Positions 9,981 to 62,476 of a stretch of DNA of 64,000 nt are shown piece by piece. The translations under genes were made by a program, and so were the position numbers. Where the stretch lies: positions 1,865,509 to 1,929,508 of the forward strand of contig OY969586.1 of NCBI GenBank assembly GCA_963701305.1, read 5' to 3'. The notes under the pieces are model-generated. The model ran no database searches, was not told where the DNA came from, and was given only the letters and a program-made list of their open reading frames with translations. The first letter of the stretch is position 1; each line of letters starts with the position of its first letter. This DNA is from Candidatus Aminicenantes bacterium. GTDB lineage: Bacteria > Acidobacteriota > Aminicenantia > Aminicenantales > CAVYOD01.

Positions 9981-10020
9981 GTAAGGGTGAGGGGTGAGGC
10001 GTAAGGGGCAAGAGGCAAAG
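9981..10020. repeat. Tandem GTRAGGG heptad array (copy A, one-armed)
   Basis: gtaaggg/tgagggg/tgaggcg/taagggg/caagagg: about 5 tandem 7-nt units in the ftsY/recJ divergent region. A 9-nt direct repeat (cgtctatcc cgtctatct) lies immediately upstream. Confidence 0.7.
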
Positions 10021-10112
10021 GGCTGTTTTTGGCGAAAGGAGCGCGGGGTACGGTGAACGGGGCACAGCTTTCGCGATTTGAGGATTGTCGTTGATTGTGC
10101 TAGATTTAAGCC

Positions 10113-11810
10113 GTGTCCATGACCGGTTCACGGTGGATCCTCAGGCCGCCGCGGCCTGAATCTGAGGTCATATCCAGGGAGCTCGGGATTCCGCTGCCTA
10201 TCGCCCAGATCTTGGTCAACCGCAACATCGACAGCCCCGTGAGTGCCCACCAGTTTCTTCACGGCGATCTCAGCGGGCTTTTTGATCCGTATCTGATGGC
10301 CGGAATGGCCGAGTCCGTTTTCAGGATAAAGGAGGCGATTGCCCGCCGGGAGAAGATCCTCATCTTCGGGGACTATGACGTCGATGGAATCTTATCAGTG
10401 GTCATGCTGCACAAAGCCCTGGAATCGCTCGGCGCAGAAATCGACTATTTCATTCCCGAGCGGCTCAAGGATGGCTACGGAATCAAGACTGAACACATCG
10501 ATATTGTCTCCCAGAAAAGAGCGGGCCTCGTGATCAGCGTGGACTGCGGGGTCAAGGCGGTCCAGTTTGTCCGAGAGGCCAAATCCAGAGGAATTGATGT
10601 CATCATCACCGACCACCATCGCCCTGGAGCCGAACTCCCGGCCGCGCTCGCCATTCTGAATCCCATGCTCGAGGCGAGCGGCTACCCGGATAAGGGGCTC
10701 GCCGGAGTCGGTGTCGTCTTCAAATTGATCCAGGCTCTCCTTGAGGACGCGCGCCGGTCGCGTTTGATTCCGCATTATATCAAGCTGGTGGCCATCGGGA
10801 CGATCGCTGACGTGGTGGAATTGAGGGGCGAGAACAGACTTCTGGCAAAATATGGACTCAAGGGTCTTGAAACAGTCGTTAACCTGGGCTTGAGAACACT
10901 GCTCGATTCCTGTGGACTTGTGAAAAAACGGGTTTCCGAGGGAGACGTCGGATTCAGGATCGGGCCGAGGATCAACGCGGCCGGCCGGATGGGCATGACC
11001 GACCTTGCGGTTCGGCTCTTTTTTTCAAAGTCCCCGGAAGAATGCCTCGATATTGTCGGCCGGCTGGAAACTCTGAACAGGAAAAGACAATCGACCGAGG
11101 AACGGATTTTCAAACAGGCGGCCCAGACAATCAGGACGAAGGCGCTCGAAAAACGGTACCGTTTCCTAGTCATGGGCTGTGACGAATGGCACCGTGGTGT
11201 CATCGGAATCGTGGCCGCTCGGCTGAAGGACGCCTTCCACCGTCCGGTACTTCTCTTTGCCTACGAGGACGGAAAGGCCTTCGGCTCGGGCAGGAGCATC
11301 AGCGAATTTTCGATGATCGATTGCCTGGACCAGTGCCGGCACCTGTTCCTCAACTACGGCGGCCACACCTATGCCGTCGGTTGTTCCCTCGAACGCGACC
11401 GGATGAGCTCGTTCAGGGCTTTGGTGAATGAACTCGCGGCCGCCCGGATCTCCGACGCGGATCTCCAGAGGAAAATACCGATCGATACGCGGTTGTGCCT
11501 CGATGAAATCCAACCCGCGCTCCTCAAGGACTATGTGCTCCTCTGGCCGTTTGGAATGGGTAACCCCAAGCCGGTGTTCATGACGGAGAGAGTGAAAGTG
11601 GCGGGCCCTCCCCAGACGATCCAAGGCAAGCACGCCAAGCTTCTGGTCAAACAGAGTGGGAGGACGGTCGAAGCGCTCGGCTGGGATAAAGCCGACTGGG
11701 CAGCGACGATCAAGAAAGGAGATGAAATCGATATCGCCTACTCTCTCCAGTTCTCCGAGTACATGGGGGAAGAAAAAGTCTCTCTTACTTTGGAAGACAT
11801 CAGGACCTAG
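10113..11810 (+). CDS. recJ: Single-stranded-DNA-specific exonuclease RecJ
   Basis: 565 aa. DHH and DHHA1 motifs (…ITDHHRPG…). Confidence 0.9.
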   Translation: MSMTGSRWILRPPRPESEVISRELGIPLPIAQILVNRNIDSPVSAHQFLHGDLSGLFDPYLMAGMAESVFRIKEAIARREKILIFGDYDVDGILSVVMLHKALESLGAEIDYFIPERLKDGYGIKTEHIDIVSQKRAGLVISVDCGVKAVQFVREAKSRGIDVIITDHHRPGAELPAALAILNPMLEASGYPDKGLAGVGVVFKLIQALLEDARRSRLIPHYIKLVAIGTIADVVELRGENRLLAKYGLKGLETVVNLGLRTLLDSCGLVKKRVSEGDVGFRIGPRINAAGRMGMTDLAVRLFFSKSPEECLDIVGRLETLNRKRQSTEERIFKQAAQTIRTKALEKRYRFLVMGCDEWHRGVIGIVAARLKDAFHRPVLLFAYEDGKAFGSGRSISEFSMIDCLDQCRHLFLNYGGHTYAVGCSLERDRMSSFRALVNELAAARISDADLQRKIPIDTRLCLDEIQPALLKDYVLLWPFGMGNPKPVFMTERVKVAGPPQTIQGKHAKLLVKQSGRTVEALGWDKADWAATIKKGDEIDIAYSLQFSEYMGEEKVSLTLEDIRT

Positions 11811-11818
11811 AATCGGGC

Positions 11819-13729
11819 ATGCGCGAAAAGACAAAGTTCAGGCTGACCAGGACCCTGAGAATAGCGATCCTCGCTGTCCTCCTCGGTATTGTAACGATGA
11901 TCTTGGTCTATCTCGTGACGCACCTGGGAGAAAAATCCAGTCCGCCCCGGCAATCGGCCGACATTGGTCCTTTGAAGATCGACCAGAAAGAAAAGATCGA
12001 GCATTTCGAGTTCAAGGGCGGCAAGGGAAACATCGAGCTCCGGGCGAACAGGTTTTATGTCGGAGAGGACAAACTGAATCACCTCGAAGGCAGCGTCGAG
12101 GTCGTCGATTTCGGGCAAAAGGGAGGACAGAAGACAATGATCTTCGCCGACCAGGTGGCTTACGACCAGGAGGGAAATCATTTTGTCCTGACCGGAAAGG
12201 TTAAGATTCAGGACAAGGATCTGACTCTTGTCTCCGATTTTTTCGATTATGATAAGAAGACAGAGGTCTTCAGGTCCGACAAGGGTGTCGGCATCGCCTC
12301 TCTGAGGCTCAACGGTTTTTCCCGAAACCTTCTCTACACTCGAGCGGACCAAACCCTGACACTCGAAGACGGGGTTCGACTGGAGGTCAAGCCCAAGCCC
12401 GAGCAAAAGATCACACGACCGTTTTTCCTGCGAGGCCAAAAGCTCGTCTATAGCCGCAAGGGACACCAGGGCGAAGGCGAGGGCCTGATCGAATTTCATT
12501 CCGGAGAAAGTGGGGGCTCCTGCCAGAACCTAAATTTTGCTCTGTCAACTGACGAAAACTTTCTGACAGAACTGCGCCTGAAAGGTAAAGTCCGGCTGGA
12601 GCTGATCTCGGAAGCCCAGCCGCAGGGCACACTTTCGAGTGGCTCGTCGGTCTTACTCCGGAGCAGGAGAAGGGAAGTCGAGGCCGAGAAGGTGGACCTC
12701 AGGATGTTCAAGAAGTCCTCCAAGGTCCGTTCCCTGGAGACCCGGGGTGACTCCCGTCTAATCCTGCACTCGGAATCAGGCGCCTGGTCCGAGCTCCTGT
12801 CTCAATCGTCGGAATTCTCTTTTGATGAGGAGGGTGAACTCCGGGGTTTCAGGGGGGGCAGGCAAGTCGCGATGGTCGATAAAGACAAGGAAGGACAGGA
12901 GTTGCGCCGCGCGAGCGGAGACGAAATGTCCTTCGGGGCGAAGAGACTCGAGCTTCGCGTCAAGGGCGGTCCGCAGGCTCCGGCAGGATTCACATCCCCT
13001 GAGAGCGACCTCCAGGCCTCAGAGATCGTCCTTTTCCTCAAAAACGACGACATCAGCGCCTCCGGAGAGGTCAAGGCCGTCTTGAAACCCAAGGGGGCGG
13101 ATAAACGGCCTCCCGGCTTTTTTTCCGGCGATCAGGCTCTCTTCGTAACCACCCGGAATCTGAGACATTTGGGCACCCCGGAGCGTTTTATTTTTAGCGG
13201 CGACATCCGAGTCTGGCAGGAGAAGAACATGATCGTGGCCCAGGAACTGACGCTTTTTAAGGAAAGCGGAGAAATCCGTTCGGCCGGAGCGGTCAGGACG
13301 ACCTTTCCCCACAAGGCAAAAACAGACGAACCAGAGGAAAAAGTCGAGATATCGGGCAATATCATGAATTACAAACCGAAAAACCGGGTCCTCTCTTTCT
13401 CGGACTCGTGCGTCCTCCTCATAAAGAACTATTCCATATCCGCGAGGACGATGTCAGTCCTTCTCAGGGAAGAAGACGGCAAGATGAAGGCGATCGAGGC
13501 CAGTGACAATGTCGTGATCCAGCAGGAGTCGAAAGAGGGAAGGGGAAAGCAGGCCATTTACAACGTGGCTAACGAGACGATTGTCCTTACCGGAAGCCCT
13601 CAGCTGCTTGACAAAAGTAAGGGAGAGACCAGGGGGGACAAATTGACTTTTTACCTATCGGATGGTAAAATCCGGGTCGAAAACCTGGAGCGGGAAAGGT
13701 CGGAAACACTCATCAAACGTGAGAAATGA
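11819..13729 (+). CDS. LptC/LptA-like OstA-fold protein (apparent LptC–LptA fusion)
   Basis: 636 aa. N-terminal membrane anchor (AILAVLLGIVTMILVYLV) followed by repeated OstA-like segments. C-terminal LptA signature (…VVIQQE…AIYNVANETIVLTGSPQL…GDKLTFYLSDGKIRVEN). Immediately upstream of lptB-rpoN-hpf, where lptC and lptA lie in E. coli. Confidence 0.65.
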   Translation: MREKTKFRLTRTLRIAILAVLLGIVTMILVYLVTHLGEKSSPPRQSADIGPLKIDQKEKIEHFEFKGGKGNIELRANRFYVGEDKLNHLEGSVEVVDFGQKGGQKTMIFADQVAYDQEGNHFVLTGKVKIQDKDLTLVSDFFDYDKKTEVFRSDKGVGIASLRLNGFSRNLLYTRADQTLTLEDGVRLEVKPKPEQKITRPFFLRGQKLVYSRKGHQGEGEGLIEFHSGESGGSCQNLNFALSTDENFLTELRLKGKVRLELISEAQPQGTLSSGSSVLLRSRRREVEAEKVDLRMFKKSSKVRSLETRGDSRLILHSESGAWSELLSQSSEFSFDEEGELRGFRGGRQVAMVDKDKEGQELRRASGDEMSFGAKRLELRVKGGPQAPAGFTSPESDLQASEIVLFLKNDDISASGEVKAVLKPKGADKRPPGFFSGDQALFVTTRNLRHLGTPERFIFSGDIRVWQEKNMIVAQELTLFKESGEIRSAGAVRTTFPHKAKTDEPEEKVEISGNIMNYKPKNRVLSFSDSCVLLIKNYSISARTMSVLLREEDGKMKAIEASDNVVIQQESKEGRGKQAIYNVANETIVLTGSPQLLDKSKGETRGDKLTFYLSDGKIRVENLERERSETLIKREK

Positions 13730-14457
13730 ACAATTCCCTGAAAGCCGTCTGCCTGAACAAATCCTATCAGCGGAAAAAAGTGGTCAATGATGTTTCTGTC
13801 GAGGTCCAGGGCGGCGAAGTGGTCGGACTCCTGGGGCCGAATGGGGCCGGGAAGACAACGACCTTTTCGATGATTCTCGGCCTTGTCCCGGAAGATTCCG
13901 GCAAGATCTTTCTTCATGGGGAAGAGATCACAGGGCTTCCCATGTACCTGAGGGCTCAGAAGGGGATGTGCCTGCTCCCCCAAGAACCCTCCGCTTTCAG
14001 AAGGCTCAGCGTAGAAGAAAATCTGCTGGCCATTCTAGAGGTTTTTCCCGATTCCCAATCCCGAAGAGAAAACGGGGAAATCGCCCAGGCTCTCCAGGAG
14101 TTCGGACTGGAAAAACTGGCCAAAGCCAGGGCCTATACCCTGTCCGGCGGAGAGAGGCGGAGGCTGGAGATTGCCAGGGCGATGATGACCAGGCCGGAGT
14201 TCATCCTGCTGGATGAGCCTTTCACCGGCATAGACCCGCTGGCCATCAATGACCTGCAGGAAATCATCGTCTCCCTCAAACGGAGGGGGCTTGGGCTGCT
14301 CCTGACGGATCACAGCGTCCGGGAAGCTCTCCGGATCACCGACCGTGCTTACATCATCGATAAAGGCCGGATCATCATGGAAGGGGAACCGCCGGAATTG
14401 ATCGCCTCGCCAGAGGTCCGAAGGAACTACCTGGGCGAGGATTTTTGCCTCTATTAA
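13726..14457 (+). CDS. lptB: LPS export ABC transporter ATP-binding protein LptB
   Basis: Walker A (GPNGAGKTT), ABC signature (LSGGERRRLEIARA), Walker B (ILLDEP). Position before rpoN. Confidence 0.92.
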   Translation: MNNSLKAVCLNKSYQRKKVVNDVSVEVQGGEVVGLLGPNGAGKTTTFSMILGLVPEDSGKIFLHGEEITGLPMYLRAQKGMCLLPQEPSAFRRLSVEENLLAILEVFPDSQSRRENGEIAQALQEFGLEKLAKARAYTLSGGERRRLEIARAMMTRPEFILLDEPFTGIDPLAINDLQEIIVSLKRRGLGLLLTDHSVREALRITDRAYIIDKGRIIMEGEPPELIASPEVRRNYLGEDFCLY

Positions 14458-14487
14458 TGTTAGAATAAGGGATATCGCGTTAAGACC

Positions 14488-18400: not shown

Positions 18401-18440
18401 GTGAGGAGTCGGGGGTGAGGAGTGAGGGGTAAGAAGTCAG
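18401..18440. repeat. Tandem GTGAGGR heptad array (copy B, one-armed)
   Basis: gtgagga/gtcgggg/gtgagga/gtgaggg/gtaagaa/gtcag between the rapZ stop and the EIIA(Man) start. Confidence 0.7.
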
Positions 18441-18500
18441 CAAAAAAAATATCATCGATAGGATCGACGCGGCGAACATGACGAACGCGGAGAGTGCAAG

Positions 18501-20966: not shown

Positions 20967-21060
20967 GTGTGAGGTAAGAGGTCAGGAGTAAGGGGCAAAA
21001 ATCAGAAAACCCCTTCCCCCTTACCGTTTACTCCTTACCACTTATAGCTGACTGCTCAGC
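20967..21060. repeat. Heptad-unit inverted-repeat element (copy C)
   Basis: Left arm gtgtgaggtaagaggtcaggagtaagggg. Right arm ccccttcccccttaccgtttactccttaccacttatagctgactgctcagc is its imperfect reverse complement. Lies between convergent ptsI and the cupin gene; likely hairpin-forming. Confidence 0.7.
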
Positions 21061-26695: not shown

Positions 26696-26783
26696 CCGAG
26701 TACGTGAGCGGTGAGCAGTGAGCGGTGAGATGTTCAAATCAAAAAACGGAATGGTTCACTGCTCAGTGATCACATCTCACTGC
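26696..26783. repeat. GTGAGCR heptad inverted-repeat element (copy D)
   Basis: Left arm cgtgagcggtgagcagtgagcggtgagatg. 25-nt spacer. Right arm actgctcagtgatcacatctcactgctcactgg (reverse-complementary). Lies between the helicase stop and the tolQ start on the - strand, so it sits in a transcribed 3'/5' region. Confidence 0.75.
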
Positions 26784-29177
26784 TCACTGGAGGAGGGCTT
26801 TGAGGATTTCCCTGGCGACCTGCTTGGCCTGCTCGCCGCTCTCCTTCGTCGGCCCGACGCAGGAGGGGCATCCTTCCTGGCAGGGGCAGATTTCGATCGT
26901 CTTCAGACAGTGTTCGAGGAGGGCCGTCTCTAGCTCAAAGAGTGAAGGGCTCAACCCGATTCCGCCGGGATAGTTATCGTAGATAAAAATATTGGGCTCA
27001 AAATCGGCGTCGGCGAAGATGGGCTGCTCTTCCTGGCGCAGGATCTTGAGGGGAATGGTCCTGGGAGGAACGGATTCGCCGGTGGAATTGTCTCCGATGG
27101 AGGCTCCGACGTCGTGGAGATCACACATCATGAACAATGGCGAGACGTGATGGAGAAGGTAGGCCAGCCCGAAAAGCCCGTTGATCTTCTGTTCCGAAAG
27201 GAAGGGCAAAACCTGGATGATGGAGGCGGGAATGGTCAGCCAGTAGGCCGTGGTGTGCATCTCATTCTGGGGTAGACTCAGGTCTCCGGCTCCGACGTTT
27301 TCCATGGTTTGGAATTTGATCTTCTTGAAGCCGACCACTTGAGTGGCGACATGGACCTCTCCGTGGGAGACAGTGCAGCCGTCAAGCGCTTTTTTGTTGA
27401 AGACATCGAGGATCTTGATCTTGGTATAGTCGATGGCATCGGTGAAATAGTCAACATCGGTCTTTTTGACATAGGCCTTGCGCTGGTCATACTCGAGCTT
27501 CTCGACGAAGTACTGTTCACCTTCGCAGATGTAAATGGCTTTGGGATGAAGGGTTGTCAGGGCCGAGGAGAAGTCGACCTCGGCGATGGCTTTGGATTTT
27601 TGGGTGGTATCGACGACGACGAAGTTGTCGGAGCTGATGCTGCGCAGACTGACGCCGTCGGCCGGATAGACATCGGACGTCCAGAACCATTTGTCCTGGG
27701 AGTGGTGAACGAGCTTCTCTTCCTCCAAGAATTTCAGAATCTCAGAGGGTTCGCCCTCGCCGAATTTTTCGCCGTCCGTGAAGGGGAGCTCGAACGCGGC
27801 GCACTCGATGTGGCTGATGAGGATGGAGAGGTTGTCGGGGTTGATGAGCGCCCGCTCCGGCGGTTTCGAAAAGAAGTAATCGGGGTGGTTGACGATGAAT
27901 TGATCGAGCGGGGAGCTCGAGGCCACGAGCACGGCCGCGGATATTCCGGTCTTGCGGCCCGCCCGCCCGGCCCGCTGCCAGGTGCTGGCGATCGTTCCGG
28001 GATAGCCGGCCAGCACGGCCACGTCCAGGCTTCCGATGTCGATCCCGAGCTCCAGGGCGTTGGTCGAGACGACTCCGAGGATCTTGCCCTCGCGCAGGCC
28101 CTTCTCGATCTCCCGCCTGGTGAGGGGAAGATAGCCTCCCCTGTAGCCTCTGATCAGTCCCTCGTCCTTGATCGTCTTTTCGATGTCTCCCTTGAGGTAG
28201 GTGAGCAGGACCTCGGTGATCAGCCGGCTCTGGGCGAAGATGATCGTCTGGAGACGATTCTTGAGGAAGATCGAGGCCAGGCGGCGTGATTCATTGACAT
28301 AGGACCGCCGGATCCCCAACGGTTTGTTGACCACGGGCGGCGTATAAAAGATGAAATACTTTTCCCCCCGCGGCGCTCCGTTGTCGTCGACCAAGGCGAC
28401 CGGCCGCTCGATCATTTTTTCGGCCATCTCGACCGGATTGGCGATCGTCGCCGTACAGAGGATGACCTGGGGGTTAGAGCCGTAGAACTGGGCGATCCTC
28501 TTCAGCCGCCGAAGGACGTTGGCCAGATGACTGCCGAAGATCCCTCGGTAATTGTGGAGCTCATCGATAACGATATATCTCAAATTCTCGAAGAGCTTGA
28601 TCCATTTGGTGTGGTGGGGAAGAATGCCCGAGTGGAGCATATCCGGGTTGGTCAGGACGATGTGACCCCTGGCCCGGATGGCCTTGCGCGCATCCTGGGG
28701 TGTGTCTCCGTCATAGGTGAAGATACGGATCTCTTCGGGGAGGAAATGGATGATCTCGTTGAGCTCGGCCTGCTGGTCCTGGGAAAGCGCTTTGGTCGGG
28801 AAAAGATAGAGGGCTCGGGCGGAGGGGTTCTTGAGAATCGTGTCGAGAACGGGAAGGTTGTAACAGAGCGTTTTTCCCGAAGCGGTCGGCGTGACGACAA
28901 CAATGTTCTTCCCCTCTCGAATGGCCTGCCAAGAGGTCAGTTGGTGGGAATAGAGCCGCTCGAAGCCTTTCTGCCTCAGGGCCTCGAGGAGGGCGGGGTG
29001 AACACCGTCCGGGTAATCCTGAAACCGGCCTGCCTGGGCCGGCAGGTGTTTGATCGCCTTGATGGAATCGGACTTGTGGCCGATTTCCCTCAGGATTTCC
29101 AGGGATTTGAGGAGGTTTTCTTCTCTGGGCATGCCCGTCTCTCTAACCTCGGTCCATGCTATCCTATAAAGCGCCAA
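26784..29177 (-). CDS. DEAD/DEAH-box helicase with C-terminal DUF1998 zinc module (YprA/MrfA family)
   Basis: 797 aa. Helicase motifs I (TPTASGKT), II (DELH), VI (QRAGRAGR) and a C-terminal Cys cluster (CPCQEGCPSC). Confidence 0.85.
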   Translation of the reverse strand: MALYRIAWTEVRETGMPREENLLKSLEILREIGHKSDSIKAIKHLPAQAGRFQDYPDGVHPALLEALRQKGFERLYSHQLTSWQAIREGKNIVVVTPTASGKTLCYNLPVLDTILKNPSARALYLFPTKALSQDQQAELNEIIHFLPEEIRIFTYDGDTPQDARKAIRARGHIVLTNPDMLHSGILPHHTKWIKLFENLRYIVIDELHNYRGIFGSHLANVLRRLKRIAQFYGSNPQVILCTATIANPVEMAEKMIERPVALVDDNGAPRGEKYFIFYTPPVVNKPLGIRRSYVNESRRLASIFLKNRLQTIIFAQSRLITEVLLTYLKGDIEKTIKDEGLIRGYRGGYLPLTRREIEKGLREGKILGVVSTNALELGIDIGSLDVAVLAGYPGTIASTWQRAGRAGRKTGISAAVLVASSSPLDQFIVNHPDYFFSKPPERALINPDNLSILISHIECAAFELPFTDGEKFGEGEPSEILKFLEEEKLVHHSQDKWFWTSDVYPADGVSLRSISSDNFVVVDTTQKSKAIAEVDFSSALTTLHPKAIYICEGEQYFVEKLEYDQRKAYVKKTDVDYFTDAIDYTKIKILDVFNKKALDGCTVSHGEVHVATQVVGFKKIKFQTMENVGAGDLSLPQNEMHTTAYWLTIPASIIQVLPFLSEQKINGLFGLAYLLHHVSPLFMMCDLHDVGASIGDNSTGESVPPRTIPLKILRQEEQPIFADADFEPNIFIYDNYPGGIGLSPSLFELETALLEHCLKTIEICPCQEGCPSCVGPTKESGEQAKQVAREILKALLQ

Positions 29178-29368
29178 TGGTCAACTTTCTCGCTCATCGC
29201 CCATGGTTTATAGCTCATGGCCTTCCATCAAGTGTTTTAATCTAAATCCTGGGTATCATATTGAATGTGTTCCTTGGCTAGGGGCCGTGAGCTCAAGATC
29301 CTAGTAATCCCATAAAAATGCTATACTTAAGGCTTGTCACGAGGAAACCGAAGCGCTAGAATAGGAGC

Positions 29369-33561: not shown

Positions 33562-33662
33562 GAAAGCCGACCGGCTTATTTTTTGGGGGCCTTCCGGAAA
33601 ATCAAAGACAAAAAAAAGAAGTTGGCTTTTCTTCTCTCAAAAGAAAAGCCAACTCCCTCGGT

Positions 33663-36350: not shown

Positions 36351-36395
36351 AACCGTCCCCCGTCCTCCGTGCCCCGTCAATCTCACCAAGAAGAC

Positions 36396-36718
36396 GGTGA
36401 GCAGTGAGCTGTGAGCACTGAGCAGCTAAAAAACGATGATCCAGAACAGCTGAACACGCCGTGCATCCTTCCGAAGTAACGTCCGGGCGGGAATTAAAGA
36501 TAGTCAAGAACATAAATCAAGAACCCCGAGATCATACTTGGTGCTCTGTCTGATTCCCTCAAAATAAGAGACGGACGCACATCCAAGCCCAGGTCCGCGC
36601 CCCTGATTGCCGGCTGTGGGAAAAGAGCCGTCGGGAGTGAGTCTTAATCGCGGTGTCAAGCATAAGATAGCCTTTTATGCTTTTCACTGCTCAGTGCTCA
36701 CAGCTCGCCGCTCACTGG
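36396..36718. repeat. MITE-like element bounded by inverted GTGAGCR heptad arms (copy E)
   Basis: Left arm 36396-36426 ggtgagcagtgagctgtgagcactgagcagc. Right arm 36685-36718 cactgctcagtgctcacagctcgccgctcactgg. Reverse complements share a perfect 20-mer gagctgtgagcactgagcag. They enclose 258 bp of non-coding sequence between convergent HD-GYP and ftsK. Confidence 0.75.
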
Positions 36719-39050: not shown

Positions 39051-39074
39051 CGGGGGAGATTATAACATATTTTA

Positions 39075-39298
39075 GTGAGCAGTGAGCAGTGAGCAGTGAG
39101 CACTGAAATAATTAACACATCATCTTTATCGATTATAATGAAGATGCTTTTATTTATAATAGGTTCTTGCCAGTTAAACGGAGCGACGCAGACCAGATAA
39201 ACGTTTGTCCAGTGAGAACTGAGCAATAAAGTACTTCGCTGATTCGGCCTTTACTTGCTTTTTTTGGCTTCTCACTGCTCAGTGCTCACGGCTCACTG
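39075..39298. repeat. MITE-like element with AT-rich core bounded by inverted GTGAGCA heptad arms (copy F)
   Basis: Left arm 39075-39106 (gtgagcagtgagcagtgagcagtgagcactga). Right arm 39270-39298 (tctcactgctcagtgctcacggctcactg). Reverse complements match 19/20. The 163-bp core is about 30% GC in a 58% GC genome. The right arm supplies the last codons (…SEP*) of the upstream GT-C gene. The left arm ends 25 bp before the ftsK start codon. Confidence 0.75.
39112..39139 (+). promoter_or_regulatory. Sigma-70-like promoter motif inside element F core (TTAACA-N16-TATAAT); a second TATAAT at 39155-39160
   Basis: Perfect -10 hexamers in the AT-rich core. A GC hairpin plus T7 run (ggcctttacttgcTTTTTTTgg, 39247-39267) lies about 120 nt downstream on the same strand. 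Orientation and function not established. Confidence 0.3.
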
Positions 39299-41706
39299 TT
39301 TTCTCCGAGGGGCGGGAGCTCGCGAACCTCGAAACTCTCCGATCTTCCGACTCGGGCCGGCTTCCGGTTGTCATAATAGTCGTCGTAGCCGACCACGATC
39401 CTAAAGGGACGAGGCAGAGAAGGAATTTCCCAAGATCCCGTGACTGGCGCCCTGCGGTCGGCCTGCCAGGAGCCCACCTTGCCCTCAAAGAGAACGTGTT
39501 TTTGGACCTCACGGCCGTCCCGGTCTGTGATTTGCACAAACGGGTTGAGGACATACTCTTCGCCCCAGCGGAGCTCCCCCCCAAAGACCGCGCTGGAGAG
39601 TCTCCATGCCCCCCCCCTGTCGGCCAGGGAGACGACCTGGCAGTAGGCGTGGCCGCGATCGTTTGGAACGAGGATGTAATAATAAAAAAAGGTGAAGGAC
39701 TTTTGGCCGGGAACAAACTTGATAGTTCCGTAAGGCAAGGGGCTTTCCTTGGTCAGCTGACGCTCCGGCTTGGGAAGTCTGAGTCCTGGAATCTTAAGGT
39801 CATATTTATAGCCGATCGCAACCTTGGAATCATCCGGCCATGAAGGAAGGCGAGAGGAGCCCGAATACGAAGATTCGGACTCTTTCTCCAAACGGCCCGG
39901 ATAAACCTTTAACAGACTGATCTCTCTTCCCCGGATATCTGAGATCCGGACATAGGGATCTCTCACGTGTTCATTCAGCCCCGGGAGCGGCCTTCCGGAA
40001 ACGAAACTGGACAGGGCCCAGCTCCCGTCCTCGGCTTCTTTTAAGATAACACTCTGCGAATAGGAGCTGAAGTTACCGGGGAAAAGATGGGTGGGACAGT
40101 TCGTCCATTTGTAGACTCTGATCGTAGGATTGTGAAGGTCGGTCAGAGGCGGGTCATTTTTGTACTCGTCCCAGGCAGGCTCGAAGGTTTTGATCAAAAC
40201 GCCGCCGGCATCCAGCGAGCCGTAAAATTCCGCCTCTCTGGGAAACTCTTTCGGAAAACGGGTGAACCGCGCCGACATGGCGTCGCTTGTGACGACATAC
40301 TGGATTCTTTTCCAGGTGAGCCACTCCAGGTTGATCTGGCTCAAGGTGTGCCGATAAGAAAGTTGATAATCTTGCGGGGAAAGAGGAGGGCAGTAGGACT
40401 CCAGTGCGATTCTACTCCCCTTCGCGATGAACCTCTCAATCCAGGCTTTGGCCGTGATCCGGGTATCCGGTCGAGTCAGAGTGTAATCGACCATCACGAC
40501 CTTGTAAGCAGGGCCAAGGAGGAGGATGAAGACGACGGCCGCGGCGAGGATTTTTTCTCCCGCCGGAGTCACTTTTGCTTTCAAATGGAGCGACGACGAC
40601 AGCTTTTTGAGCCACGATAACATGGCGTCCAGAAAGAGAGAGGCCAAGAGAATCAGGAAGGGAGCGAGAGGGAGCATGTACCGGGTCGCTCTCGTCTTCC
40701 ACATGCCGATCAGGATAAAAAGCACGAGTGGGTAGGAGAGCAGAATGAGGTCTTTCTTTCTGTGCCGGACCAGGGCGTAGACGAGACCCCCTCCGACCAG
40801 GAACTGGGCGTAAGGCCCGACATTTTCTCTGAACCCGTACTTGAGGTAAAAAAGCCAGGCGGGATCCGCCGTCGAATCGCCGAAGTGGCCGAAGGAATAG
40901 AGATGTCTCGATTGCCAGCGAAAATCTCTCCAGAAGGTCGGAAAATCAAGCACGGCATATGGACAACCGGCCAGGAATCCGGCGGTGAATGAGGCCGCTG
41001 ATAGAAAGAGATCAGGACTCAGAATGATCTTTCGAAGCGGAAGCTTGTTTTCGAGGATACGAAAGATGTGGGCCAGGATAAGAGGAAGGAAGAGCATTTG
41101 GCCGCCGTACTTTGTGGCCGTGGCCAGTCCGGCTGCCAGTCCGGCCCAAACATAGTATTTTCGATCGCCTCGAGTGTAGATGAGCCAGCAAAAAAAGAAA
41201 GATAAAACCAGAAAGAAAACCATCGGTGAGTCGGGGTTCATGTAGTGCGAGATTTTGTTGTGCTCGGGCGAAAATATCAGGAACAGCCCGGCCAGGAATC
41301 CGAGGCGCCGATCGTACATTTTTTTCCCGATGAGATAGACGAGGAGGATTGTCCCCACGCTCAGAAAAAGGGTCAGGAGACGGCCGATGAGATAGAAAAC
41401 GGTTGGGTCATGGTTGAAATGGGCGACGAAGGTCGCGACAGAAGGAAAATTCCCGGCCATCTTGCCGCCGAGAAAATAGACGCCCCACAGCGCCGCGACC
41501 ATATAGGTATAAAGAGTAGGGACATGGAAAAAATGGGGGTCCAGGCCCTTGCTGAAATAGTCGATCGAGATCTGGGCGAAGCGCGCCTCGTCAACGTGAA
41601 GAATGAAGGGCAGGCCGAAATTGATGCCCCAGCCTCGAACGAGGACCGCGAGGACGACAAGGACAATGAGGACGGTTTTTTCTGATGGAAATTTCTCGGA
41701 ATTCAT
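39286..41706 (-). CDS. GT-C fold glycosyltransferase, ArnT/PMT-like (GT39/GT83) with large C-terminal periplasmic domain
   Basis: 806 aa. About 11 N-terminal TM helices with a first-loop acidic motif (HVDEARFAQ), then a roughly 350-aa soluble domain. Confidence 0.75.
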   Translation of the reverse strand: MNSEKFPSEKTVLIVLVVLAVLVRGWGINFGLPFILHVDEARFAQISIDYFSKGLDPHFFHVPTLYTYMVAALWGVYFLGGKMAGNFPSVATFVAHFNHDPTVFYLIGRLLTLFLSVGTILLVYLIGKKMYDRRLGFLAGLFLIFSPEHNKISHYMNPDSPMVFFLVLSFFFCWLIYTRGDRKYYVWAGLAAGLATATKYGGQMLFLPLILAHIFRILENKLPLRKIILSPDLFLSAASFTAGFLAGCPYAVLDFPTFWRDFRWQSRHLYSFGHFGDSTADPAWLFYLKYGFRENVGPYAQFLVGGGLVYALVRHRKKDLILLSYPLVLFILIGMWKTRATRYMLPLAPFLILLASLFLDAMLSWLKKLSSSLHLKAKVTPAGEKILAAAVVFILLLGPAYKVVMVDYTLTRPDTRITAKAWIERFIAKGSRIALESYCPPLSPQDYQLSYRHTLSQINLEWLTWKRIQYVVTSDAMSARFTRFPKEFPREAEFYGSLDAGGVLIKTFEPAWDEYKNDPPLTDLHNPTIRVYKWTNCPTHLFPGNFSSYSQSVILKEAEDGSWALSSFVSGRPLPGLNEHVRDPYVRISDIRGREISLLKVYPGRLEKESESSYSGSSRLPSWPDDSKVAIGYKYDLKIPGLRLPKPERQLTKESPLPYGTIKFVPGQKSFTFFYYYILVPNDRGHAYCQVVSLADRGGAWRLSSAVFGGELRWGEEYVLNPFVQITDRDGREVQKHVLFEGKVGSWQADRRAPVTGSWEIPSLPRPFRIVVGYDDYYDNRKPARVGRSESFEVRELPPLGENSEP

Positions 41707-41807
41707 ATGTTAAGGCAATTTACGCACACTTGAGGAAAGGCGTCAAGAAGAAGCGTGATCCAGGCACAGAAGCAAGAGAAAAACAAATCAAGGTGAGGGT
41801 GGTCATC

Positions 41808-57449: not shown

Positions 57450-59501
57450 ATGATCAGGAAGAAAGGGATGATGCAGGGAATTTATCCAAAATATGCTTTC
57501 ATCTTCGTTTTCTTGGCGCTCTTCTTTGCCGCCTTTCAAAGCCAGAGTCTGGCAGCTGTCAACATTTCCAATTCATCGGGCCATGCCTCGTGGGCCCCAA
57601 GGATCGCATTGGACTCTCAGGGGAACATCTATGCCGTCTGGCTCGAAATTTATTCGGCGACCAGCGCAAGCGGCGATATCTTTTACACAAAATTCGATAG
57701 CCTGGATCAAAGCTGGAGCGCTCCCCTGAATTTGAGTCAATCGGGTGTGGCCGCGAGCTATTCTTACATGGCTTGTGATGTTGCCAGCGATAGCTCTGAT
57801 CGCATCTACGTCGTCTGGGCAGAAAGCAATGTGATCAAGCTGAGAATTCTTTCGGGGGGGGCTTGGGGCGGCTCGATCGTTGTCGCCAACTCATCGGGCT
57901 CGGATCATCCCAGGATTGGCGTGAGCTCGGACGGGGATCTCTTTATCATCTGGTGGACAACAAACGGGGTGGTCTATTCCAGGGCAAGAGTTGGGGGGAC
58001 ATGGGAAGGGACCAGGACTATAAGCAGAGCGGGAGCACGAGCCAAATTTCCTAACATTGCCGTAAGAGGAGGATCGGTTTTCGGGACTTGGGTCGAGAAG
58101 AGCGGGGACTACAAGGCGGTTTATGCCACGCGGAATTCCGGTCTCAATTCAGGTTGGAGTCAAAGCGAAGCGCTGCCGTCGTCCAAAGGATCGGACGAGC
58201 ATCCGGATGTCGTCATCGATACCAATGGGACGGCTCATTTCATCTGGACGCCCGACTTCGGCGGGACCAGAGCCGTCTGCTATACCTACCGCACGGGCAG
58301 CGGCTTCGGCCCTCTGCAATGGATTTCAGAGCAACAGATGCTGCACTACCCGAATCTCGTGGTCCAGGGCACGAGCCTCTATGCGTGCTGGCAGGTCGGA
58401 GCGTACGGCAATGGCTTGCGCGTCAATTATAATATCAGGCAGGGAGGGACCTGGACTGGGGAAACCCCAGTCTCTCAATCGGCTGGATCGACATTCTCTG
58501 ACATCGAGATCAGTCAGGGTGGGGAGAGCGTTTATTTTGTTTGGGAATCCCATGGAGAGATTTATTTCGCGTCGACGGGACAGACTCCGCCGCCACCTCC
58601 GTCAGGAAATCAGCCCCCTATTGCCGATTTTGGGTTCTCGCCGACAACCGGTCAATATCCTCTCGAGGTCACTTTTGACGGCTCTCTTTCCTATGATCCT
58701 GATGGGCGGATCGATTCCTATGCCTGGATTTTTGGAGACGGCGGCACCGGCACAGGGAAAGCCGTCAAACACACTTACAAGAAAAACGGCACATTCAGCA
58801 TCAAATTGACAGTCGCTGATGACAAGGGAATGACAGGAACTTATGCTCAGAAAATTACCGTTTTGAAGCCGAACACTCCTCCCGTCGCCGGGTTTGCCTT
58901 CTCTCCAACAACCGGGATCTGTCCCCTGGCCGTGAATTTTGATGCCTCGGCTTCGCGGGATCCTGATGGCAGCATCGTCTCTTTTGCCTGGAATTTTGGC
59001 GACGCCGGAACTGGTTCAGGCAAGCTCACCAATCACACTTATTCTAAACCCGGAACATTCGACATCCAGCTCACGGTGACCGACAACAGGGGAGGCACAG
59101 GAACGAAGACGAAGACGATCACCGTCCTGGCCCTTTATGGTCCGCTGGACGTGCGCTGGGAGACCGTTATCGATGAAAGCCTTTTTCAGTCTCGCCATGT
59201 CACCGAGGTCGTTTGGGCCAAGAATCCCAAAAATGACGCCATCGGCGCCCAGATCACCGGGTACAGGGTCTATCGCAAAGGAACTCAGGATCCCATCAGT
59301 TCGTACGCGCCGGTCAAACTCGTGGATGCCAATACGTTTTCTTACATGGATTTCGATGTCGAGGGGAAGGGCCTCTATTCTTACGTTGTGACGACGGTGG
59401 ACAGCCAGGGTCATGAGAGTCTGATTGGCAACACGGCCGGGAGGATCCTGGATTCGGTCAAGAGCCAGGAATCAGCCAGAAATCGGATCAAAAAATATTA
59501 G
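57450..59501 (+). CDS. Secreted beta-propeller protein with two PKD domains and an Fn3-like domain (paralog 3)
   Basis: Signal peptide. Same blade motif (DSQGNIYAVWLE, SDGDLFIIWWT, DTNGTAHFIWTP). Two canonical PKD modules (…FDGSLSYDPDGRIDSYAWIFGDG…). C-terminal GYRVYRKG Fn3-like domain. Confidence 0.75.
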   Translation: MIRKKGMMQGIYPKYAFIFVFLALFFAAFQSQSLAAVNISNSSGHASWAPRIALDSQGNIYAVWLEIYSATSASGDIFYTKFDSLDQSWSAPLNLSQSGVAASYSYMACDVASDSSDRIYVVWAESNVIKLRILSGGAWGGSIVVANSSGSDHPRIGVSSDGDLFIIWWTTNGVVYSRARVGGTWEGTRTISRAGARAKFPNIAVRGGSVFGTWVEKSGDYKAVYATRNSGLNSGWSQSEALPSSKGSDEHPDVVIDTNGTAHFIWTPDFGGTRAVCYTYRTGSGFGPLQWISEQQMLHYPNLVVQGTSLYACWQVGAYGNGLRVNYNIRQGGTWTGETPVSQSAGSTFSDIEISQGGESVYFVWESHGEIYFASTGQTPPPPPSGNQPPIADFGFSPTTGQYPLEVTFDGSLSYDPDGRIDSYAWIFGDGGTGTGKAVKHTYKKNGTFSIKLTVADDKGMTGTYAQKITVLKPNTPPVAGFAFSPTTGICPLAVNFDASASRDPDGSIVSFAWNFGDAGTGSGKLTNHTYSKPGTFDIQLTVTDNRGGTGTKTKTITVLALYGPLDVRWETVIDESLFQSRHVTEVVWAKNPKNDAIGAQITGYRVYRKGTQDPISSYAPVKLVDANTFSYMDFDVEGKGLYSYVVTTVDSQGHESLIGNTAGRILDSVKSQESARNRIKKY

Positions 59502-59576
59502 CTCTCCCTCCCCTTGCCTTTCGCCAAGGAGATTTTTTCGCACACCGTTATCCCACTGCGGCCAACGAATCGCGGC

Positions 59577-60230
59577 TCATTCCTTGGCGGCGAAAAAAAG
59601 GACGTGGGGATACCAATAGCCTTTGTCCAAGGAGATTGGTCTAACTCTAAATCCTACTCCCTCGAGCAGCCGGAGATATTCAGCCCTGCTCCGGAAACAA
59701 AATCTGTTCCCGTGCGTGAATCCGATGATCTTGACGGCCATGGTTTCCTGGAAGAGATTCCAGAGATATTTCCAGCGGGGCCGGGTATCCATATCTTTGA
59801 GTAGGAGCACTCCTCCCTTAGTCAAAGCCTGGTAACATTTGCGGAGCATGGCCTCCTGCCGGGAGGAGGGGATGAGATACAGAACATCGATCATGGCGAT
59901 GACGTCGCTCTTCGGATAATCCATATCCGTGATGTTAAAAACCCGGAATTCCAGACCGGGAATGTCTTTATGGACATCGCGGGCGGTCTTGATCTTTTTG
60001 GGGTCCAAGTCAAAGCCGAGAATCTCACGGGCGGGAGATCCCAGTTTGAGCAGGTTCGAAAAAACGCCGTTGCCGCAGCCTAGATCGATGACTTTTCCGG
60101 CAGGAGGAAAATAGGTCTCCATCGCCAGAAACGGGCAAATCTTGAGCTTGATCCGCAAATAGAGTTTTGTGGCCAGGCCACAGTTGTGATAGAGACGGAA
60201 GACTTCTTCTCGATTCAGCATCCGCCTCAC
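59577..60230 (-). CDS. Class I SAM-dependent methyltransferase
   Basis: Motif I VIDLGCGNG, post-I D, about 217 aa. ATGA-coupled to upstream asnB. Confidence 0.75.
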   Translation of the reverse strand: MRRMLNREEVFRLYHNCGLATKLYLRIKLKICPFLAMETYFPPAGKVIDLGCGNGVFSNLLKLGSPAREILGFDLDPKKIKTARDVHKDIPGLEFRVFNITDMDYPKSDVIAMIDVLYLIPSSRQEAMLRKCYQALTKGGVLLLKDMDTRPRWKYLWNLFQETMAVKIIGFTHGNRFCFRSRAEYLRLLEGVGFRVRPISLDKGYWYPHVLFFAAKE

Positions 60231-62137
60231 CTCAGATAGTGATCATACCAGAACTGGAAGATGATGAGCGGCCATAGCAACTGGCGATGATTGTGATTTC
60301 CTTCGAAGTGCTCTTTCATGATCTTCCCAACGTAGGCGGCATTAAAAAAACGGTGCTTTTTCAGGTTCTCAGGGGAGAGGACGGAGGCCACGAAATCCTT
60401 GAGGTCATCCTTGATCCAGACGCCCAGGGGGATGTCGAAACCTATCTTCTTCCTGCGGATGATTTCCCGTGGCAACCGGCGGCTCATTGCTTTCTTGAGG
60501 ATGTATTTGGAGGTCATTCCCTTGAGCTTGAGGGAGCTTGGGATCGTGGCGGCGAACTCGACGAAGGTGTAATCCAGAAAGGGGACGCGGATCTCGAGGG
60601 AATTGGCCATGCTCATCCGGTCCACTTTGACCAGGAGGTCGTCCTGGAGATAGAGCTTGAGGTCCAGGTAGGCCAGCCTGTCCAGGGTTTCGCTGGCTCG
60701 GCAGTTTCGAAGATGGAAGGCCACCGGGGAGTAGGCATCTTGGCCAAGCGCCTCCCTGAACTCCTCGGAGAAGAGGTCCTTTTTGGCGGCGGGAGTGAAA
60801 GCGCCCCACCAAACAAAATTGGCGATCTCGGGCGGGTATTCGACACCGGCGATGAATTTTTTCGCCTTGAACTCGAAGGAGAGCCTCTTCTTAGTGGCCG
60901 GCAGGAGCGAGACCAGGTTCTTGACGATTCCGGTCCTGATCAACCGAGGGACCCTGCGGTAGAGACGGGCCACCTTGTAAGCTTTATAGGTATCGTAGCC
61001 CGCGAAGAGCTCATCGCCGCCGTCCCCGGCCAGGGCCACGGTGACATATCGACGTGCCAGTTTGGAAATGATATAAGTTGGGATGATCGAGGCATCAGCC
61101 AGGGGCTCGTCCACATAGTTCATCAAGAGGGGAACCAGGTCTTTCACCAGGCTCGACTCGACGACGAACTCCCGGTGTTCGGTGCCGAAGCGCTGCGCGA
61201 TCGTCTTGGCGTAATCCAGCTCATCGAAGCTCTTTTCTTTGAAACCGATCGAGAAGGTCTTGATGGGAGACGATGCGCCCTCGCTCATCAACGACGTGAT
61301 CGAACTCGAATCGATCCCGCCGCTCAAGAAAACGCCGAGGGGGACATCACTGATGAGTCTCATCCGCACAGACTCCTTGAGCCGGCGTTCAATCTCCTCC
61401 GCAAATTCTTCTTCGCTCTTCGGGGGAGAAGGCTTGGGCTCAAAGCGAACATCCCAGTAAGGACGCAGAGTGACTCGGCCGTTCTCAAGGACGAGCATTT
61501 CACCTGGCTGGAGTTTCTGAATGCCTCTGAAGATCGTGCGCGGAGCCGGGACATATTCGAAGGTAAAATATTGCGAGAGGGCCTCCAAGTCGATCTCTCT
61601 CGGGCAGTCTGACTGAAGCAGCGACTTAATCTCCGAGGAAAAAAGGAGCTGGCTCTTGTACCTTAGGTAGTGAAGCGGCTTCACGCCCAACCGGTCTCGG
61701 ACAAGGATCAGTTTTTTTTTGGCCTTGTCCCAGAGGGCGATGGCGAACATCCCGTTGAGGTCCTGGACGAACGACTCTCCTTTTTCTTCGTAAAGGTGGA
61801 CGATGACTTCCGTATCGGTTTGCGTCCGGAAGGTGTGGCCCTTGTCCACGAGGCGCTTCTTCAATTCCGGGAAATTGTAGATCTCGCCGTTGTAGATCGT
61901 CCAGATCGATCCGTCCTCGTTGGACAGCGGCTGATGGCCGGTGACCAGGTCGATGATGCTCAGCCTCCTCATCCCCAGGGCGATCCGGTCGTCTCGATAA
62001 TAGCCCTCGTCGTCAGGGCCGCGATGGACCATCGCCCGGCACATCGCCCGGGTCAGGATTTCCGCGTCCGGGCCCAGTTCGCCAAAACCGCAGATTCCGC
62101 AGATGCCACACATCTCAGTTGGGCTCATTGTATCCAT
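60227..62137 (-). CDS. asnB: Asparagine synthetase (glutamine-hydrolysing) family amidotransferase
   Basis: N-terminal Ntn Cys (MCGICGF), SGGIDSS PP-loop. 636 aa. Confidence 0.88.
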   Translation of the reverse strand: MDTMSPTEMCGICGICGFGELGPDAEILTRAMCRAMVHRGPDDEGYYRDDRIALGMRRLSIIDLVTGHQPLSNEDGSIWTIYNGEIYNFPELKKRLVDKGHTFRTQTDTEVIVHLYEEKGESFVQDLNGMFAIALWDKAKKKLILVRDRLGVKPLHYLRYKSQLLFSSEIKSLLQSDCPREIDLEALSQYFTFEYVPAPRTIFRGIQKLQPGEMLVLENGRVTLRPYWDVRFEPKPSPPKSEEEFAEEIERRLKESVRMRLISDVPLGVFLSGGIDSSSITSLMSEGASSPIKTFSIGFKEKSFDELDYAKTIAQRFGTEHREFVVESSLVKDLVPLLMNYVDEPLADASIIPTYIISKLARRYVTVALAGDGGDELFAGYDTYKAYKVARLYRRVPRLIRTGIVKNLVSLLPATKKRLSFEFKAKKFIAGVEYPPEIANFVWWGAFTPAAKKDLFSEEFREALGQDAYSPVAFHLRNCRASETLDRLAYLDLKLYLQDDLLVKVDRMSMANSLEIRVPFLDYTFVEFAATIPSSLKLKGMTSKYILKKAMSRRLPREIIRRKKIGFDIPLGVWIKDDLKDFVASVLSPENLKKHRFFNAAYVGKIMKEHFEGNHNHRQLLWPLIIFQFWYDHYLR

Positions 62138-62213
62138 TTTCGATCAAAAACACTACCTTCGCCTGTCTTATCCCTCTCTTTATCTGATGTAAACGCGATA
62201 AGTAACTTGACAT

Positions 62214-62350
62214 GTTCAAGATTGCGCCCACGGCCACCCTCTGGCCCCCGGACCCCGAGGAACCAGTCCCGTCGGTTCCCCCGTCGGACATGCCGACGGG
62301 CCCCCCTCCGCTACGGGGTCTCAAGGGTGGCCGTGGGCGCAATCTTGAAC
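62214..62350. repeat. 137-bp element with perfect 27-bp terminal inverted repeats and a nested GC hairpin
   Basis: gttcaagattgcgcccacggccaccct (62214-62240) is exactly reverse-complemented at 62324-62350. The 83-bp C-rich spacer contains cccgtcgg-acatg-ccgacggg. Lies in the asnB/ydjC divergent region. Confidence 0.8.
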
Positions 62351-62400
62351 AGAAATGTCGCGTTTGTATTAGTCATCTCGTCATCCCGTCAAGAAAGAGA

Positions 62401-62476
62401 AAGCAGTAAGCTGTAAGCACTGAGCAGTGAAAGCCCAAATCAAATATTTTCTTACCGTTCACTCCTTACCCCTGAC
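62401..62476. repeat. Heptad-unit inverted-repeat element (copy G)
   Basis: aagcagtaagctgtaagcactgagcagtga … ttaccgttcactccttacccctgac. Shares the cttaccgttYactccttacc module with copy C. Confidence 0.7.

Follow-up and report, generated by a model that had tools for sequence, protein, structure and literature searches.

Intergenic 7-nucleotide tandem arrays, many with inverted arms, in a Candidatus Aminicenantes genome

Heptad arrays in the spacers of the window

We analysed a stretch of 64,000 nucleotides (nt) from a Candidatus Aminicenantes bacterium (GenBank assembly GCA_963701305.1, contig OY969586.1, forward-strand positions 1,865,509 to 1,929,508; hereafter the window), whose spacers contain arrays of tandem 7-nt units. 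The window has a G+C content of 54% and carries ftsY, recJ, lptB-rpoN-hpf-ptsN-hprK-rapZ-PTS, a tol/exb cluster, a gene for an MrfA-like helicase, uvrA, holB, ftsK, asnB and ydjC. About 7 of its roughly 18 true spacers bear arrays (copies A to G). The analysis confirmed that these form a genuine dispersed family of intergenic 7-nt tandem repeats, many of them with inverted arms.

Tandem Repeats Finder reported period-7 arrays at 9985, 18400, 21009, 26704/26756, 36397/36684, 39074/39271 and 62401, and all seven loci named in the original prediction, which a model had made from the letters of this DNA, were found where it had placed them. A degenerate two-unit pattern (GTRAGSNGTRAGS, at most one mismatch) has 29 matches compared to 2.49 expected, a number that none of 100 shuffles reaches. 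Period 7 is the only enriched period in a self-match scan of periods 4 to 12 (26 high-scoring scan windows versus 0 for each other period). The units are of two types: copies D, E, F and G-left consist of GTGAGCN, and copies A, B, C and G-right of GTRAGGN. The core CACTGCTCAGTG(C/A)TCAC, which had been described as common to D, E and F, is exact in all three and recurs in G in the opposite orientation with 1 mismatch; allowing up to two mismatches, it has 11 matches where 0.01 are expected. Searched over the whole window at the gathering threshold, Rfam returned no family, and no tRNA was found there.

The arrays had been placed between genes or at gene ends, and this holds: they overlap at most a stop codon or the last 1-4 codons of genes with Pfam support. 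The flanking pairs are ftsY/recJ (A), rapZ/EIIA-man (B), ptsI/cupin (C), exbB/helicase (D), HD/ftsK (E), ftsK/PMT-like (F) and asnB/ydjC (G). The spacers of A, G and a degenerate eighth site are divergent, those of C and E convergent, and those of B, D and F co-directional.

Copies A and B are single arrays on the + strand. Copy A (9981-10026), in the divergent ftsY/recJ spacer, is the G-rich series GTAAGGG TGAGGGG TGAGGCG TAAGGGG CAAGAGG CAAAGGG, and its 5′ end faces the ftsY start at a distance of ~50 nt. Copy B (18401-18441; GTGAGGA GTCGGGG GTGAGGA GTGAGGG GTAAGAA GTCAGCA) lies in sense orientation in the rapZ/EIIA-man spacer, 4 nt past the rapZ stop and 60 nt ahead of the EIIA-man start. 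Copy C has two arms, each in sense orientation behind its gene: a left arm of GTRAGG type (20967-20998, + strand) just past the ptsI stop, and a right arm reading GTAAGGA GTAAACG GTAAGGG (21009-21045, - strand) 20 nt past the stop of the convergent cupin gene.

The left arm of copy D (26704-26733, + strand; GTGAGCG GTGAGCA GTGAGCG GTGAGAT) lies 54 nt before the exbB start and occupies the non-coding strand. Its right arm (26754-26789, - strand; GTGAGCA GTGAGAT GTGATCA CTGAGCA GTGAACC) sits at the helicase end, where the TGA stop of the helicase (...ALLQ, stop) is part of the arm's first heptad. The eighth site (…GAGCTCACGG…; CCATGAGCT…ATGGGCGATGAGCGAGAAAG) occupies ~29185-29295 in the divergent helicase/uvrA spacer; its equivalent in a close relative, L121, has clearer inverted heptad arms (L numbers denote fetched comparison loci or contigs). 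Both arms of copy E are in sense orientation: the left arm (36397-36431, + strand; GTGAGCA GTGAGCT GTGAGCA CTGAGCA GC) begins 46 nt past the HD-gene stop, and the right arm (36681-36717, - strand; GTGAGCG GCGAGCT GTGAGCA CTGAGCA GTGAAAA) 15 nt past the ftsK stop.

Copy F has three arms. The left arm, (GTGAGCA)x4 CTGAAAT (39074-39111, + strand), lies 24 nt before the ftsK start and occupies the non-coding strand; the middle arm CCAGTGAGAACTGAGCAA (39210-39228, + strand), which the earlier description had overlooked, pairs with the right arm; and the right arm (39260-39298, - strand; GTGAGCC GTGAGCA CTGAGCA GTGAGAA) codes for the final residues and the stop of the PMT-like gene (...ENSEP, stop). 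A conserved extended -10 box, TGTTATAAT, precedes ftsK by ~9 nt from its ATG (window 39051-39074, - strand; L121:9977-10000; L122:228-251), and a heptad arm directly adjoins this box in both the window (the left arm of F) and L121. From the position of the box, the ftsK mRNA may be leaderless or nearly so.

Copy G, in the asnB/ydjC spacer, has arms of different unit types: a GTGAGC-type left arm (62399-62432, + strand; GAAAGCA GTAAGCT GTAAGCA CTGAGCA GTGAAAG) and a GTRAGGN-type right arm (62448-62476, - strand; GTCAGGG GTAAGGA GTGAACG GTAAGAA), the latter 17 nt upstream of the ydjC start. A further fragment at 41790-41807, AAATCAAGGTGAGGGTGG, lies just upstream of a - strand gene starting at 41706. 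It resembles the AAATCAA loop motif and GTGAGGG unit of D, G and C and could be what is left of a decayed copy.

A second kind of repeat, anchored on CGTC and with a period of 7-9 (CCGTCTATC, CCGTCCC, GTCATCYC, TATCTCGTC), stands on the outer side of several heptad arms, namely at A, E, G, L121 and L212. At copy A it is a short tandem of two CCGTCTATC units (9950-9967, + strand). At copy E the form is CCGTCNN (CCGTCCC CCGTCCT CCGTGCC CCGTCAA; 36353-36378, + strand), between the HD-gene stop and the left arm. Outside the left arm of G it reads GTCATCTC GTCATCCC GTCAAG (62372-62391, + strand) and is conserved in the non-orthologous copy L212. In L121 such repeats form an inverted pair of their own around a heptad array (12328-12356 and 12478-12515), and at window 4688-4706 one occurs alone, without heptads. 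Across the window the companion pattern CGTCNNNNCGTC is not significantly enriched (5 matches, 2.2 expected).

Copy G also adjoins a G+C-rich long inverted repeat of 187 nt (window 62181-62367, arms 62213-62250 and 62314-62351). This is a dispersed element, with ~90% identical copies in two non-syntenic contigs (L177:3744-3930 and L226:8714-8914), in the first of which it again lies next to a heptad array. Its core is invariant and its stem changes are apparently compensatory (CCCACGG/CCGTGGG, CCGAAGG/CCTTCGG, CCGGAGC/GCCTCCGG), a pattern from which it could be a structured RNA or a small palindromic mobile element. A permissive Rfam search matched MIR1882 at 62100-62520; we rejected this match as a generic long hairpin, with 40 bits compared to a gathering threshold of 107 and equal scores on both strands.

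Inverted arms, folding and turnover in close relatives

The original prediction had paired five of the seven loci with a reverse-complementary array. Convincing inverted repeats are confined to D, E and F (in F, middle with right and left with right). Folded as single-stranded DNA, the D hairpin is strong relative to shuffles (z = -4.15) and F's middle and right arms form a moderate one (z = -2.55); the left and right arms of F are 82% complementary over 38 nt. The arms of E are 89% complementary over 35 nt and enclose ~249-258 nt of unique sequence. In contrast, the pairing claimed for C is weak (z = -1.71) and the arms of G do not pair (z = +0.09), while folding gave no self-structure for A and B.

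The arms share unit orders as well as a period. Both D arms contain the odd unit GTGAGAT, and both E arms read G(T/C)GAGCT-GTGAGCA-CTGAGCA. Because these odd units stand in register, an origin of the pairs solely from two independent arrays is ruled out for D and E; it may hold for G and C. Seven arms of GTGAGC type have a unit of CTGAGCA type at their end, mostly with GTGA(A/G) after it, and at the inner end of some arms lies a 14-nt mini-palindrome, TCACT-GAGC-AGTGA. C-right and G-right, at different loci, have GTAAGGA-GTRAACG-GTAAG in common. The unit orders shared by unrelated loci (GTGAGCA-CTGAGCA-GTGAA and GTAAGGA-GTRAACG-GTAAG) suggest copying between loci.

A G-quadruplex (G4) potential had been proposed for A and B, and G4-forming regulatory repeats, as proposed for the heptad GGGAATC, would be an explanation for at least A, B and C. 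Related G-rich heptads do form G4 in vitro (PMC4692102), and copy A has four tracts of at least three G residues if loops of up to 12 nt are allowed. However, none of the arrays satisfies the canonical rule (four tracts of G>=3, loops of 1-7); A passes only with the relaxed loops, B has just two G>=3 tracts, and two-tetrad patterns number in the hundreds in the window. The majority type, GTGAGCN, cannot form G4. We therefore consider this explanation very improbable, and the proposed potential of A and B did not hold up.

We used the ftsK loci of graded relatives for synteny. The window's FtsK has a 97% match, in L121, whose DNA is ~95% identical to the window; the named homologues at ~70% identity are all from Candidatus Aminicenantes metagenome-assembled genomes. 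A blastn alignment of L121 with the window is continuous, array-free spacers included, and is interrupted solely at D, E, F and the uvrA/helicase spacer. No arrays were found in relatives whose FtsK is 81% and ~70% identical.

At site D, the helicase stop carries a heptad hairpin in either genome, but in L121 the entire element is turned around, asymmetric loop included (alignment score 106 inverted versus 58 direct), and its blastn match runs opposite to that of the flanks. Each genome's D arms share an odd unit of their own, GTGAGAT in the window and GTGATC in L121, and both orthologues fold despite the different units (-20.6 and -17.8 kcal/mol). Site F has the same arms in both genomes, with ~150 nt extra between them in the window. 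At site E the spacer is replaced in L121 by one that is unrelated apart from also consisting of short repeats. This comparison of orthologous sites shows that the DNA of the elements changes far more quickly than the sequence around it, through changes in unit number, an indel, spacer replacement and the flip of D.

Copies elsewhere and anchoring to gene boundaries

The original prediction was to be abandoned if no copies lay beyond the window. Copies are present in independent contigs of the same lineage, so that objection fails. Same-lineage metagenome DNA (54-56% G+C) contains at least ~65 arrays in ~226 kb at non-syntenic sites. The metagenome scan was queried with the inner module, and a scan across species took one genome per species and three GTGAGCN units; all counts from both are lower bounds. 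Among the same-lineage loci listed, the usual layout is a stop codon, a sense array, a loop of 20-250 nt, an antisense arm and then ~75-90 nt to the next start. The asymmetric build of copy G, in which a GTGAGC-type left arm is combined with a CCTYAC-type right arm, is seen again in L212, L220 and L228.

Two further readings of such elements are as transposable elements of the miniature inverted-repeat kind (MITEs) or as low-complexity protein-coding sequence. Copies E and F do have 35-38 nt terminal inverted repeats around 150-250 nt. However, the interiors of E (~249-258 nt) and F (164 nt) have no other copy in the ~226 kb of same-lineage DNA listed, where only the arms recur, and the MITE reading is rejected because these interiors are unique. 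No target-site duplication was seen at D, E or F when flanking direct repeats were sought by eye. Coding sequence, which had been named as a second reason for dropping the prediction, is excluded by the position of the arrays between Pfam-supported genes and by TGA codons in all three sense frames. Together these two readings are the most improbable that we weighed.

Among the matches listed, arrays of three GTGAGCN units occur in Gemmatimonadota, Acidobacteriota, Cyanobacteria (Rivularia, Allocoleopsis), Proteobacteria, Bacteroidota, Planctomycetota, Chloroflexota, Streptomyces and others, and many of these cross-phylum matches are compact hairpins. The Rivularia and Allocoleopsis loci intersperse GTGAGCA units with GTTAACA, GTGAACA and GTTATCA. 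Cultured carriers in the same list are Phyllobacterium leguminum, whose strain ORS 1419 holds a compact GTGAGCA hairpin (locus L050), Hymenobacter arizonensis, Algivirga pacifica and Streptomyces spp., S. ipomoeae among them.

Viral contigs hold 92 stretches of three-unit GTGAGCN arrays, 57 of GAGTGCN and 7 of GGTACGN. GAGTGCN, a permuted unit, was composition-matched and meant as a negative control, and some of its arrays are inverted pairs (L345-L401); it follows that several distinct heptads, and not GTGAGCN alone, are favoured. Some IMG/VR contigs carry at least 10 GTGAGCN arrays in a few kb (L288, L279, L259 and L314, which are IMGVR_UViG_3300039307_000285, and L266), and in L266 (IMGVR_UViG_3300017938_000062) successive short genes are each bracketed by heptad hairpins. 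Such array-rich contigs may be phages, or misbinned host DNA, of array-rich lineages. A low-G+C dispersed repeat (…GAGTATTGTGAGGCAGTAAGCACTGAGCAGTGAGCAGACTCAGTCTGCTG…) shares the same 18-mer by coincidence (L127, L129, L136, L138, L143 and ~25 other loci). It comes from samples of the Ga0056115/Ga0209568 type and has very many copies in host-associated metagenomes; it is probably a repeat of a eukaryote or symbiont, with no relation to the heptad family.

The arrays are anchored to genes by their 5′ ends. All 13 outer arms of the window point their 5′ end outward, toward the nearest open reading frame (ORF), and independent gene calls give the same anchoring in L121. An array after a stop codon is in sense orientation and starts -12 to +46 nt from the stop, and an array before a start codon is on the non-coding strand, 17-54 nt away. 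The exception is the left arm of G, which falls outside that range because another element is intercalated there. The G-rich strand, with TGA or TAA in every frame, thus reads away from the gene. Three units of (GTGAGCN)n suffice to put a TGA into each frame of the sense strand, and the complementary strand is open in all of its frames. The first heptads often supply an adjacent ORF with its stop and its last 1-4 residues, as they do the TGA of the helicase and the final four codons of the PMT-like gene, and it is for this reason that C-termini differ between the window and L121 (…GENSEP and …EERSER, each before the stop).

Consequently, arrays that share a spacer, whether two separate ones or one with its inverted duplicate, almost always face each other. 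A GTGAGC arm precedes a GCTCAC arm in 35 pairs and follows it in 1 (126 sequences, comprising 125 fetched loci and the window, most from many phyla; among the matches listed). The corresponding numbers in viral contigs are 36 and 4, and the four exceptions, once examined, span a short gene between two neighbouring elements. With crude ORF calls, single arrays have their 5′ side nearer the gene in 13/16, 42/67 and 60/85 cases in three sets. If a single array is anchored by its 5′ end to an ORF, an inverted copy is possible only on its 3′ side, which would alone give the observed polarity. A stop-codon barrier was considered as the sole cause of polarity and is insufficient, since 12 pairs placed in divergent spacers by crude ORF calls all have the usual polarity.

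This orientation rule could be the signature of dedicated gene-boundary transcription elements, whose effect on RNA polymerase or on the RNA would depend on their orientation, as non-canonical terminators, as stem-loops that protect 3′ ends or as insulators. Sense arrays start within -10 to +45 nt of stops, the distance from the distal arm to the next start (typically ~75-90 nt) leaves room for a promoter, and F has its left arm adjoining the ftsK -10 box. One rule holds in three data sets and in published species, and D is kept as a hairpin in two genomes despite its changed sequence. Yet the spacers of A, G and the eighth site are divergent and have no transcript to terminate, and pairs are not depleted from divergent spacers (12/52). 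G, A and B have no structure, and G·U versus A·C pairs show no strand asymmetry favouring the sense RNA.

Between 26000 and 40000, moreover, no array is among the terminator-like sites, because the loops are long and lack a T tract, whereas a canonical bidirectional intrinsic terminator with a 20-bp stem and T tracts on both sides was detected between convergent genes (33615-33659, within 33562-33662). Ordinary terminators are therefore in use in this organism at sites that lack heptad arrays. A reading of the arrays as canonical terminators is rejected, as no array combines a short loop with a T tract, and a dedicated boundary role in the broader sense is doubtful. A second terminator-like hairpin followed by a T run lies at 59502-59545. 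We also considered Rho loading on a C-rich incoming strand and set it aside as not generalising, because cyanobacteria, which abound in heptad repeats, are not known to have Rho.

Known heptanucleotide repeats and the proposed origin of the arrays

The short tandemly repeated repetitive (STRR) heptamers of Calothrix, Nostoc and Anabaena were reportedly described by Mazel et al. in 1990, and the STRR3 unit is GTCAACA. Like the present loci, STRR, to which GGGGAYT of Nostoc belongs, are dispersed intergenic heptanucleotide arrays, many with a CAGT core, and GTGAGCA in another register is GAGCAGT. The host here is non-cyanobacterial, and STRR are mostly single arrays, with few pairs reported in Nostoc. 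The units GTGAGCA, GTCAACA and GTTATCA, the last being the reverse complement of TAACTGA in the GT register, all fit GTnAnCn.

TAACTGA repeats occur in marine Beggiatoaceae, cyanobacteria and Bacteroidetes, with a patchy spread across phyla for which no transfer mechanism is known (MacGregor 2015, PMC4679880). They too are intergenic heptamer arrays with stops in the forward orientation and an open reverse, but are mainly forward, directly upstream of starts, and almost never form inverted pairs. Heptanucleotide simple sequence repeats (SSRs) have been noted as the commonest class of long SSR in many genomes, and STRR were recognised long ago in Calothrix (PMC4692102, PMC4679880).

The closest likeness is to the GGGAATC arrays of Xanthomonas campestris and X. 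citri, with 70-75 'convergent' pairs per genome (Rehm et al. 2015, PMC4692102). GGGAATC/GGGGAYT arrays lie nearer the 5′ neighbouring ORF whatever its orientation, and the G-rich strand of GGGAATC lies on the coding strand where an array follows or overlaps a stop, and on the non-coding strand where it precedes a start (PMC4692102). They have no insertion sequence (IS) association, and site and type (single or pair) are kept between species while length and sequence vary (PMC4692102). Intergenic 7-nt arrays, convergent pairs, proximity of the 5′ end to the ORF, the strand rule and conserved sites of variable length are thus common to both. The loci here differ in their unit (GTGAGCN/GTRAGGN), in having little G4 potential and in their occurrence in Aminicenantes rather than Gammaproteobacteria; in addition, their arms share a non-periodic inner module, have outer CGTC-type companions and are documented as inverted between relatives.

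The properties of the heptanucleotide SSR/STRR class are all present: a tandem 7-nt period, location in spacers, polar placement, convergent pairs (C-G) and conserved but variable sites, with D and F occupied in both the window and L121 by different units, spacing or orientation and E wholly different. The original prediction recognised no named family in the heptad arm; intergenic heptanucleotide repeats (STRR, GGGAATC pairs, TAACTGA) in fact fit closely, although a literature search on the exact heptad string retrieved no relevant paper. The loci are a new unit in a new phylum within this class, and not a new kind of element.

A resemblance to repetitive extragenic palindromes (REP), BIMEs or MITEs had been proposed. 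The dispersal, extragenic position and inverted arms stand, but MITE likeness is refuted by the unique interiors, and REP membership is unproven: the REP unit is itself an imperfect palindrome, and the arms here are direct heptad arrays. In a REPIN-like reading, doublets of D, E and F type would be non-autonomous elements, excised and inserted in the form of single-stranded hairpins; the enzyme would be a RAYT or an IS200-like HUH transposase with one gene elsewhere in the genome, and A and B would be decayed remnants. The family has much in common with REP/REPIN-RAYT systems (Bertels and Rainey 2011, PMC3116915), being extragenic and dispersed, with a variable spacer, concerted or compensatory arm change and inverted doublets, some of which fold (D and F, and E by its complementary arms; C weakly, G not). 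The orthologous D elements changed both arms in concert, as described for REPINs (PMC3116915). Unit orders common to unrelated loci imply copying, presence or absence differs between close relatives, and the 14-nt mini-palindrome lies at inner arm ends.

Several observations argue against this reading. G-type elements do not fold and yet recur with the same architecture, and the loops span 20 to 260 nt with unique interiors. The same units and orientation rule cross many phyla and phage contigs, whereas REP co-diverges with RAYT, and the closest described relatives were reported without IS association (PMC4692102). A transposase that could mobilise the arrays had been suggested; no transposase or RAYT is among the genes of the 64-kb window, and a crude HUH prefilter found no RAYT in the other same-lineage loci. 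Its sole match is a truncated IS91-family Y2 transposase ORF (L183:126-1019; Pfam Y2_Tnp, E = 1.8e-24), 4.7 kb from the nearest array and with no evident association. We regard REPIN-like mobility as unlikely, though worth keeping in view.

The reading that we prefer, at a probability of roughly 0.55, is that the arrays are a lineage-specific family of non-coding GTGAGCN/GTRAGGN heptanucleotide repeats of the same kind as cyanobacterial STRR and Xanthomonas GGGAATC pairs. The arms of D, E and F are shown to be true inverted copies by their odd units in register, and a hairpin or cruciform is possible. Slipped-strand mispairing would let arrays grow and shrink, recombination or template switching between arms would keep them alike and flip the element, and existing arms would be copied, by a route acting in trans, to seed new sites. 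The arrays would be mainly self-propagating or near-neutral DNA, tolerated only at gene boundaries. Any effect on the host is likely modest: a stop in every frame where genes end and, with paired copies, a stem-loop within the 3′ untranslated region (UTR) of the upstream gene. The latter recalls intrinsic terminators, as D, E, F and C place a stem-loop directly 3′ of stops, but without a short loop and T tract, and with arrays also in divergent spacers.

Some of the evidence weighs against this preferred reading. Pure slippage fails to account for the unit order shared by unrelated loci. By arm duplex energy in co-directional spacers, sense and antisense stability show no asymmetry (sense more stable in 12 cases, antisense in 16), which weakens a role as 3′-UTR stem-loops. 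ORF calls outside the window and L121 are crude, and counts of arrays with a closer 5′ side or at a stop codon are inflated because sense arrays stop ORFs in every frame. The same-lineage loci were selected by the inner module, so its frequency among them is biased.

A bolder and distinctly speculative extension is that heptad arrays are one pan-bacterial and phage class of directional gene-boundary element, read or made by a conserved machine with a 7-nt footprint or step. Such a machine may be a replication or repair polymerase that creates the arrays, or an OB-fold or transcription factor that reads them. If true, this would account for the period, the strand rule and the return of one unit in Acidobacteriota, Gemmatimonadota, Proteobacteria, Bacteroidota, Cyanobacteria and viral contigs. 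In that case the arrays would not be junk but would shield genes from transcription and translation going out or coming in.

Taken as a lineage-specific family of the known class, the arrays bear on a long-standing problem, the origin and function of heptanucleotide repeats, which are said to have been known in cyanobacteria since 1990. The window provides a well-resolved case, with a new unit, in the candidate phylum Aminicenantes. It adds the GTGAGCN unit and its strict arm polarity in many phyla and viral contigs, the shared non-periodic unit orders, and a clean inversion at ~95% identity. For annotation, the arrays are a practical marker of ORF ends, with the sense arm often supplying the stop codon. 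The cultured carriers make the orientation rule open to experiment.

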